Below are positions 3,001-6,000 of a DNA stretch of 7,680 bases, in pieces. How positions within the stretch are numbered: position 1 is the first letter of the stretch; every line of letters begins with the position of its first letter. The stretch is from a virus (Duplodnaviria; Heunggongvirae; Uroviricota; Caudoviricetes): IMG/VR virus record IMGVR_UViG_2671180366_000007, positions 1 through 7,680 of that record, one strand, 5' to 3'. Made by a program: the position numbers.

Positions 3001-6000
3001 ATACCTCACTGAACCGGCAGTATGCGGAGCTGCTGAGTGAATATAAACATCTGCGGCGGTATTTTGGCGTGACGGTGCAGGTGCCGTATACCGATGTGTG
3101 GACGCATAAACCGGTGCAGTTCTATCCCGGGAAACATCCGTGCGAAAAACCGGCAGAAATGCTGCAGCAGATAATCAGCGCAAGCAGTCGTCCGGGTGAC
3201 CTGGTTGCAGATTTTTTTATGGGCTCAGGTTCAACGGTAAAAGCTGCACTGGCGCTCGGGCGTCGTGCGATTGGCGTTGAACTGGAGACCGGACGTTTTG
3301 AGCAGACAGTCAGGGAAGTTCAGGATTTAATCGTTTGAAACGGATGAGATTGCAGAATTAATTACGCACCATTATTATTCTGCTCCCGGCCCTTTAGCTC
3401 AGTGGTGAGAGCGAGCGACTCATAATCGCCAGGTCGCTGGTTCAAATCCAGCAAGGGCCACCATCACAAACCGTCATTAGCTTATCAGGAAGAGCAGACG
3501 ACACGATAACAGGGTTGTTGGTGCGGGGGCGGGTCCCCGATGGCGGTCCATTATCGGTATTCAGCGTTGTTAGCTCAGCCGGACAGAGCAATTGCCTTCT
3601 AAGCAATCGGTCACTGGTTCGAATCCAGTACAGCGCGCTATATTCATTCTTCCAGATTCCTTCCGGCAGAGCCTTATACTGAAATATACCTGGCTCAGGA
3701 TATTGTTGAAAATATTTTATGTTTGTCAAAAATAAAAGTTCTGTTAAGTATTGATTGAGTGTTTGTTATACGGTCTAATGGTTTTTTCAGCATTAAATAT
3801 TTATCATTCATATGGTGTGGGTAGAGTGAATATTGATGAGGCGTCGGGGTGTTTCATCCTTAGGCAGCGTATTGATATAGTCAATGCAGGACGAGCAAAG
3901 GCCTTCAGCCGTTTGACAGTTTTGTTCTGTACTCCTGATCGTCTTTCGGGAAGAGACGTTATTATTCTGAATAGTGATGCTATACAGAGGGTTTGCGATG
4001 AGTTCATGGTTGCTAATTCAGAATTATTTGCTCTTGTTCAGGAGTACAACAGAATAGCCAGGACCTGTGGTATGGATGAACTTCGGATTACTCATCTGGG
4101 GTAGATACATATCTGGATTATCACTTGTTACGGTAAAAAGTGATTGCTTACTGTTTTTGTGAGTGGCATTGCAGCAGCCGGATAATGTCAGTGCTGGCTG
4201 ACGGTGTGCTGGTGGCGGGTGTGGTGGTTGTTGCTTTCCCGTTGCTGAAAAAGAAAACGCCAGACTGTTAGCCGGGTATCAGTTAGCGGGAGAAATTTTT
4301 AAATACTTCACAATTCAGGCGGTTGACTGTTGTCTGGTTTGCGGGGAGTTTGTTAAAAGAAACTGGCATGGTGAATCCCCCTGTGCGGAGGGGCAATCAG
4401 CGAGTAGGTATATGGGATAATCGCGGATTCAGGTGCTGGTACTGAATTCACCGGGAGGCACCCGGCACCATGCAATGGCACATAGCGCCACTCTCCAGCC
4501 CCTCTCCGGAGGGGCTGTTTATATTGATTTTGTCAGATGTGAGTAAACTCCTTATGGACTTTGTTGTTTTAGTCCATAAGGACATATTTGCAGAGTGCAA
4601 CGGTTATTAAAGCATTCATTCAATACGTTATCTGTATTTGTAGGACATTCCTGGCTGTTTTTGATTAAATTCCAGAATGTTTTATTGAATGGTACTACGT
4701 TGTAAATGGTTACAGGTAGCACTTTGTTATTGAGCATGATACCTGTGTGAGTCAGTGTAAATATACTTTCAGGAGGTAAGAAAGCATCCGATTGATACCA
4801 GATTATTAATTTTATTTTACTCCATATGACTGAAAAAGATATTCCGCATGATGGCTGGATAACTGTATCAATCACAATCCACTTCATTTAGCTTCCTTGT
4901 TTATGCCTTGCTGGTGATGTTCTGAAAAGTATAAATGATATTTTTGAATATAAACCATAGAGCAGAATTATTTTTCTGATGTTGTTTATTGTTTATTTAA
5001 ATGCAGGGTGGTTTATATCTCGTCTTGTAGTTTATCCATGCATATCTGCTTGATGATCAGGTTTCTATTTAAGGTATGGTTTTGTGTTTTTTCTGTGTTA
5101 CATGTCTGGTATTTTAAAGAATTATTTTTCAGATGGTGGAAAGAACCATGGCATTTAAACACTATGATGTTGTCAGGGCGGCGCCGCCGTCAGATCTTGC
5201 GGAAAAGCTGACACATAAACTGAAAGAGGGCTGGCAGCCGTTTGGTAGTCCGGTGGCCATAACCCCTTATACCCTGATGCAGGCGATTGCAGCAGAAGGT
5301 GATGTGGTGGTCAGTGGTGCAACTGAGCCCGAGTGATACTACGTCATCGTACTGGCCCGGCATTCCAGGCCATAAAAGACAGTCTGGCAGTGGGACTAAA
5401 TGTACTGACGCTGACGGATATTACCAAAAATGCAACGTATGGCGTTGAGATAGAAAGTCTGGTGCTGGAGATAAATGCACCGGCATCATCATAAAAAGTG
5501 AGCCAGTCAAATGGAAGGTATCGTTAAACTCACCGGTAGTGTCAGTGGGTCGTCTGAGATGCCTGCATGAGTTATCAGAGCCATCAGTACTTAACTGGTG
5601 GCTTTTTTTATTGTTGTCAGCTTCCGGATAACGGGAGACGGGGTATGTACCAGATGGAAAAAATCACAACAGGTGTGTCATACACCACGTCAGCGGTGGG
5701 AACGGGCTACTGGTTACTGCAGCTGCTGGACAAAGTCTCTCCGTCCCAGTGGGTGGCAATCGGTGTGCTGGGGAGTCTGCTGTTTGGCCTGCTGACGTAT
5801 CTGACTAACCTGTATTTCAAAATCAGAGAGGACCGTCGTAAGGCGGCGCGGGGAGAGTAAAGCGATGAAGAAAAAATACGAACTGGTTGTTAAAGGGATA
5901 AATAATTACCCGGATAAGATTACTGTTACTGTGGCACTGGAAATTGGTGGGTATCCGTCACTGTTGTTGCCAGATGTGGCGATTAGTCTTGACCGTACTG

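Follow-up and report, generated by a model that had tools for sequence, protein, structure and literature searches.

What does the AT-rich DNA that separates the tRNAs of this prophage from its lysis genes encode, and does it form a single uncharacterised module in the slot where Stx phages carry stx, as an earlier note on this DNA proposed? The window, which is the whole stretch of 7,680 nucleotides analysed here, covers the genes for late regulation and lysis in a lambdoid prophage. Its genes run in the order DUF968, RusA, antiterminator Q, a small ORF, a DNA methyltransferase and two tRNAs, followed by the interval 3640–5140 and then by a class II holin, YdfR and lysozyme (Table 1). The interval of about 1.5 kb between the tRNAs and the lysis genes is indeed AT-rich, with a GC content of 39.4% in 3640–5140 against about 50% in its flanks (51.6% in 1–3639 and 49.5% in 5141–7680). 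The lowest value within it is 32.3%, at 4527–5132 in the block that holds iraL, and the STnc100 small RNA gene reaches 55.3%. Both ORFs reported earlier, at 3751–4104 on the + strand and at 4552–4887 on the − strand, exist. Most of the cargo is already described, as the RssB anti-adaptor IraL, the STnc100 small RNA and a TciB-like peptide. The view that the module is uncharacterised, and the best candidate in the window for an undescribed function, gives way on the − strand protein, which is identical to IraL.

Table 1 Features of the window and the basis of their assignment
Feature	Position	Strand	Basis or remark
Antiterminator Q	895–1716		
DNA methyltransferase	2289–3338		
Phage tRNA, CAU anticodon	3388–3463	+	PGAP: tRNA-Ile (lysidine type); ARAGORN: Met
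Middle tRNA-Arg(TCG) of the phage tRNA trio, degenerate remnant	3471–3547	+	Centre diverged, uncalled; intact in CFT073
Phage tRNA-Arg (UCU)	3564–3638	+	
ORF92, phrog_2873 protein, 92 aa (probable start)	3826–4104	+	PHROG match; homologue starts; predicted two-helix hairpin
DUF3927/TciB-like hydrophobic peptide, 43 aa	4140–4271	+	Pfam PF13064; phrog_1470; PGAP WP_000562553.1
STnc100 small RNA (RF02076), full length	4337–4526	+	Covariance-model match; contains terminator 4496–4517
iraL CDS, RssB anti-adaptor IraL, 111 aa	4552–4887	−	Identical to CFT073 WP_000871291.1
iraL 5'UTR and promoter	4888–4954	−	Identity with CFT073 5'-RACE sequence
nanS-p (SASA 9-O-acetylesterase) deletion remnant	5148–5494	+	phrog_143; Pfam DUF1737; PGAP pseudogene
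nanS-p remnant, N-terminal part (DUF1737)	5148–5336	+	
nanS-p remnant, C-terminal part	5333–5494	+	

The E. coli ETEC6 chromosome is 100% identical to the window over 3340–5600, and at least 80% of this segment is carried by 858 of the 5426 complete E. coli genomes. The prophage adjoining potB in uropathogenic E. coli CFT073 aligns with window 3349–5600 as one collinear piece at 97.5% identity. Two annotated − strand features within the interval are probably spurious, namely a PGAP pseudo-CDS at about 4356–4481 and a 38-aa CDS annotated in phage mEp460_ev081 (about window 3695–3811).

We consider it about 90% probable that this interval, which lies between Q and holin in a lambdoid prophage, is a mosaic whose cargo units can be exchanged separately. 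The gene order in Stx phage 75/02 is Q, stxAB, STnc100, esterase and holin. Homology of the window to phage 75/02 stops at 4474, inside STnc100, and homology to the STEC1585 prophage reaches the STnc100 terminator and stops there, at about 4520; both restart at the nanS-p start codon (5147/5148). Because these breaks flank the iraL block, this block of about 630 bp and 32% GC is a separate insert. Phage mEp460_ev081 has window 3349–4474 in common, with ORF92, tciB and part of STnc100 and without iraL, and phage vB_EcoS-640R1 has 4308–5700 in common, with STnc100, iraL and the nanS remnant and without ORF92. Thus the two ORFs of the earlier note are not an obligate travelling pair, since each of these phages has only one of them. 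Among the 76 ORF92-bearing IMG/VR loci with enough downstream sequence, tciB is found at 74, STnc100 at 73 and iraL at 57. Because the parts exchange independently among phages and IMG/VR loci, the cargo is a mosaic rather than one system.

The Q-to-holin interval does hold moron-type cargo, as had been supposed, and the order of genes in phage 75/02 agrees with its placement at the stx slot. This placement does not extend to iraL itself, whose sub-slot is a separate one and runs from the STnc100 terminator to the nanS-p start codon. In one Stx phage, the AgvB anti-sRNA occupies the same sub-slot in the same reverse orientation (locus L022, 3666–3725). AgvB of phage 75/02 is a 60-nt RNA on the − strand, whereas iraL is a protein gene, and no AgvB match was found in the window.

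Direct translation of the − strand ORF gives a protein identical to IraL of CFT073 at all 111 residues. Residues 1–110 match NCBIfam NF007393, the IraM subfamily, with 162 bits (cutoff 121), and the identical protein of ETEC6, WP_000871291.1, bears the PGAP name "anti-adapter protein IraM". The same WP_000871291.1 is present in CFT073, within the prophage adjoining potB. Of the two proteins that the earlier note did not recognise, the − strand one therefore belongs to a characterised family and the + strand one does not. The iraL gene together with its promoter is present in 1446 of the 5426 complete E. coli genomes. It was discovered in CFT073 by Hryckowian et al. in 2014, who showed that IraL interacts with RssB and makes RpoS more abundant and more stable during log phase, and who mapped the transcription start with 5'-RACE (PMC4045071).

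IraM of E. coli K-12 is a member of the same family (NF007393), and 66 of the 111 IraL residues (59%) are identical to it. The two domains of RssB are both bound by IraM, which also remodels the helical linker and obstructs the RpoS-receiving face (PMC10844676). The N-terminal 78-residue RssB-binding core of K-12 IraM aligns with IraL without gaps (PDB 8TWD chain A, IraM residues 1–78; E-value 9e-32 by sequence comparison), and the conserved core, a PmrD-like barrel, thus appears from the alignment to be present in IraL. K-12 IraM, whose structure is 8TWD, is an RssB anti-adaptor induced through PhoPQ. In contrast, IraL works in log phase even when no stress is applied, and its contacts with RssB are reportedly different. 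DNA homology between K-12 iraM and iraL (71%) is confined to the coding region, with unrelated promoters and genomic contexts, in keeping with the report that the two genes are regulated differently.

The resemblance to CFT073 extends beyond the protein. Its iraL has the same flanks as here, with tRNAs, ORF92, DUF3927 and STnc100 lying to one side of it, the nanS-p remnant and holin to the other, and the sequence at the transcription start and the −10 hexamer are shared with the window. However, the 80 nt that precede the ATG differ between the two alleles by four substitutions, one of them in the −35-like hexamer. Furthermore, the CFT073 prophage has an IS200 copy where the window prophage has the DNA methyltransferase, and the window prophage is without the middle tRNA-Arg that is present in CFT073.

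The ribosome-binding site and promoter-like element attributed to the − strand ORF are both there. The Shine-Dalgarno sequence AAGGAAG is located at 4892–4898, 4 nt before the ATG. The published 5' end of the iraL transcript, ACATCACCAGCAAGGCATAAACAAGGAAACCA, matches the − strand of the window at 30 of its 32 positions and places the transcription start at 4920, with the −10 hexamer TATACT at 4928–4933, 7 nt upstream of the 5'-RACE-matched start. The best −35-like hexamer is TTTATA at 4949–4954. Relative to CFT073, the window is changed at −30 (C to T, inside this hexamer, which is TTTACA in CFT073) and at −1, and two bases of the 5'UTR differ beside the Shine-Dalgarno sequence.

These substitutions raise the question of whether the window iraL is a silent or weakened copy. 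The published work on iraL flagged a −35 point mutation in some strains and stated its effect as unknown (PMC4045071); the C-to-T change at −30 may be the "JJ1886 iraL2 −35 mutation". However, the coding sequence is intact and the protein identical, no change falls in the −10 hexamer or at the start position, and the exact 80-nt upstream variant of the window is kept in 267 complete genomes (of 1438 that carry iraL). A loss or weakening of expression through the promoter and leader changes is therefore doubtful.

AppY, a prophage regulator, induces iraM, and the idea of an AppY-based regulation of iraL was considered and dropped. Inspection by eye found just one PhoP half-site-like GGTTTA, at the −35 position of iraL, and no PhoP box is claimed there. 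The iraL promoter points away from the late operon, and expression of iraL should therefore be independent of Q. Activity of the − strand gene in the lysogen independently of late transcription, which the earlier note had predicted, has been shown for CFT073 IraL (PMC4045071). No − strand terminator was found downstream of the iraL stop codon, and iraL transcripts may for this reason run antisense into STnc100. Speculatively, such read-through might couple iraL and STnc100.

The GC-rich structured spacer noted between the two ORFs is present, but it is not uncharacterised: together with the terminator it makes up the known small RNA STnc100. The covariance model of Rfam RF02076 matches here over model positions 1–206 with 132.4 bits (gathering score 47). 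The + strand intrinsic terminator that had been noticed is part of this match and consists of 9 base pairs, 7 of them G-C, followed by a T-rich tail. In Stx2 phages, STnc100 follows stx2B at a distance of 75 nt (PMC12370729), and the Hfq-binding small RNA EcOnc27/sRNA103 of O157 strains partially overlaps it (PMC12711010). The window copy is thus a full-length member, terminator included, of the STnc100/EcOnc27/PasD family and lies in the same place as other members, after the stx slot and before the nanS-p esterase gene. Unlike in Stx phages, there is no stx upstream, and STnc100 is present as a single copy, whereas related prophages have two to four. A promoter for STnc100 was not located, which was counted against the best explanation of the interval.

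These features suggest how the two units may operate side by side. In the lysogen, iraL would be transcribed from its own sigma-70 promoter, as is the case in CFT073. IraL would bind the adaptor RssB, as the identical CFT073 protein does. Because of this binding, RpoS would no longer be brought to ClpXP and, because its delivery stops, would build up even in log phase. By analogy with the CFT073 protein, iraL would thus serve as a lysogenic-conversion function that acts through RpoS accumulation. As long as Q is absent, the STnc100 terminator is expected to stop transcription of the + strand and thereby to shield the convergent iraL gene, and STnc100 would then end at 4517 in the lysogen. After induction, Q-modified polymerase should pass this terminator.

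ORF92 is the only uncharacterised part of the block. The + strand reading frame proposed earlier stands, but its start does not, GTG 3826 being a likelier start than TTG 3751. None of 12 close alleles has a stop codon in the 92-codon core; in one allele a stop interrupts the 25-codon upstream extension but leaves the core intact. The core shows dN/dS values of 0.16–0.33, compared with 0.37–0.79 in the extension, where indels also occur. Most homologues begin at the position equivalent to GTG 3826. TTG 3751 and ATG 3778 were rejected as starts because distant homologues begin at GTG 3826, and the upstream starts are also disfavoured by locus L018, which has no start codon at the equivalent upstream position. 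On the basis of dN/dS, the indels and the stop in the extension and of the homologue starts, the gene is taken as 3826–4104, and the protein probably has 92 residues. Homologues have a good Shine-Dalgarno sequence at the equivalent start, and that of the window copy is weaker (GGTGTGGGTAGA in the window versus GGCAGGAGTAGA in L018).

The ORF92 product matches phrog_2873, a PHROG family without an assigned function, with an E-value of 3.5e-70 over profile positions 1–108, which is the whole family model. It has no match in Pfam, NCBIfam or PADLOC, and a profile search of the PDB returned nothing significant (best E-value 0.11). AlphaFold2 models it as a two-helix hairpin with a pLDDT of 88.5, and it is predicted to be a small soluble two-helix protein. 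The ORF92 sequence occurs in 1186 complete E. coli genomes. Among the 39 full-length matches listed from these carriers, none has a RefSeq (PGAP) feature under ORF92; one partial match overlaps an annotated 'hypothetical protein'. Other E. coli prophages contain homologues of the same length with 56–63% identity. Profile searching of 1.84 billion representative proteins, and then a second search, extended the family beyond Escherichia to Citrobacter, Salmonella, Morganella, Serratia and Xenorhabdus, with lengths of 91–110 aa and 20–63% identity to the window protein; this spread over six genera is based on the profile-search homologues and their examined contexts.

Could the + strand ORF (3751/3826–4104) be a chance ORF in AT-rich spacer DNA? 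Its lack of annotation in the 39 full-length RefSeq matches listed, of any sequence match in Pfam, NCBIfam or the PDB and of a strong start in the window copy (GTG or TTG behind a weak Shine-Dalgarno sequence) would agree with this, as would its single match among 50,697 GenBank phage records. However, a chance ORF would not account for a family conserved in length across six genera, for the low dN/dS and the excess of change at third codon positions, or for the good Shine-Dalgarno sequences of homologues and the core free of stop codons in all 12 alleles, and the confident AlphaFold2 model and conserved Q-to-holin position likewise argue against it. We therefore regard a chance ORF as improbable, and ORF92 looks, from its pattern of conservation, like a real gene.

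In seven of the eight contexts examined, ORF92 is on the late-transcription strand and sits between holin and Q, the latter sometimes accompanied by a methyltransferase. This placement at the Q-to-holin junction of lambdoid prophages is conserved over the six genera, all of them Enterobacterales. One version is found near a Rep3-type replication gene (plasmid-like), adjoining a PapB-type fimbrial operon. In two E. coli lineages ORF92 comes after a YdeO/GadX-like AraC regulator, and in some STEC prophages it is directly downstream of such a regulator. The linkages to tciB and to the AraC regulator hint at possible roles, with lysis timing and host takeover as possibilities. The proposal that ORF92 is a genuine, expressed late-operon protein with an undescribed role, omitted by RefSeq in about one-fifth of complete E. 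coli genomes, stands at roughly even odds.

Immediately downstream, a 43-codon DUF3927 ORF at 4140–4271 had been overlooked in the earlier note. Its product matches Pfam PF13064 with 95.6 bits (gathering score 25), and PHROGs labels TciB-like peptides 'inhibition of cell division or resistance to colicin'. The tciA gene (TerB-like), the usual upstream partner of tciB, is absent from the window and is present in JLK-2012 and at loci L012 and L018; unlike phages N15 and JLK-2012, which have the tciA–tciB pair, the window has the tciB-like peptide alone. JLK-2012 resembles the window in having the DUF3927 peptide immediately upstream of STnc100. DNA homology to JLK-2012 tciB begins only at window 4172, and the first 32 nt of the window ORF are of different origin. 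On the far side of iraL, the nanS-p remnant matches phrog_143 at positions 1–58 and 582–632 of 634. Because only the two ends of this 634-residue family match, nanS-p has undergone a large internal deletion.

The earlier note pointed to anti-phage defence or superinfection exclusion, and the classic moron site, the reversed iraL with its own promoter, the PHROGs label of TciB-like peptides and the candidate roles of ORF92 and TciB would agree with an undescribed system of this kind. Such a system is very improbable, since neither the four window proteins nor the ORF92 homologue P0014 matches any PADLOC model, the − strand gene has a different demonstrated function in RpoS stabilisation, and the parts swap independently.

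The mosaic reading thus accounts for an interval whose main gene and RNA are published and common, and its weight as a discovery is small for that reason. What it adds lies in three places. A small conserved protein family, that of ORF92, appears to have been skipped consistently by RefSeq annotation. The iraL gene, described as lying on a "potB genomic island" (PMC4045071), is now placed as a reversed insert in a lambdoid prophage. Furthermore, the window promoter allele differs from the characterised one, and this difference bears on whether log-phase RpoS is in fact raised in ETEC-type lysogens.

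Prophages related to that of the window carry more than one copy of the prophage sRNA STnc100. Four full-length copies are found in the STEC1585 prophage, three of them arranged in tandem directly upstream of the sialate O-acetylesterase gene nanS-p, and two in phage vB_EcoS-640R1. The copies lie at the ends of cargo units, placed as if they were recombination points or module boundaries. For ETEC6 as well as CFT073, RefSeq annotates a pseudo "hypothetical protein" CDS antisense within STnc100, which is probably an annotation artefact. The sub-slot between STnc100 and nanS-p, occupied by iraL in the window, contains the anti-sRNA AgvB in Stx phage 75/02, and both elements share the reverse orientation. 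A phrog_143 profile match shows that, in the window, only ~58 codons from the start of nanS-p and ~50 from its end are left; PGAP labels the first piece a pseudogene and annotates a hypothetical protein for the second.

The interval between the antiterminator gene Q and the tRNAs is another exchange point within the same late region as the cargo interval. There the window carries an ORF of phrog_331 along with a gene for an N6/N4 DNA methyltransferase, whereas CFT073 has an IS200C transposase at the matching place. The central ~45 nt of the middle phage tRNA have diverged from, or been replaced relative to, the CFT073 sequence, and neither ARAGORN nor Rfam calls a tRNA at this position. Therefore, the window prophage provides two tRNAs rather than three.

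A YdeO/GadX-like AraC regulator of 241-242 aa is located directly upstream of diverged homologues of ORF92, the phrog_2873 small protein of the window, in E. coli prophages including STEC1585, where PGAP annotates the regulator and leaves the small ORF92-like ORF unannotated. Another family member has a Rep3 replication gene nearby and adjoins a PapB-regulated chaperone-usher fimbrial operon. Because this context is plasmid-like, the ORF92 family is not limited to prophage late regions.

Coordinates of features in the window and in the compared loci
Feature	Source	Position	Strand	Remark
N6/N4 DNA methyltransferase	window	2289-3338		compared with CFT073, L005 11700-12158
Middle tRNA of trio, remnant	window	3471-3547		CFT073 counterpart tRNA-Arg(TCG), L005:12387-12463
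Antisense pseudo-CDS	window	~4356-4481	-	
nanS-p remnant	window	5148-5494		phrog_143 positions 1-58 and 582-632 of 634
STnc100 copies	STEC1585 (L008)	3075-3287, 5047-5242, 5306-5505, 5567-5756		
STnc100 copies	vB_EcoS-640R1 (L002)	4165-4358, 4634-4822		
AgvB	Stx phage 75/02 (L022)	3666-3725	-	
AraC regulator	STEC1585 (L008)	3664-4389		ORF92 homologue downstream
AraC regulator	E. coli prophage (L006)	164-889		ORF92 homologue downstream
AraC regulator	E. coli prophage (L018)	4142-4870		ORF92 homologue downstream
ORF92-family member	L009-L011	5001-5276		91 aa
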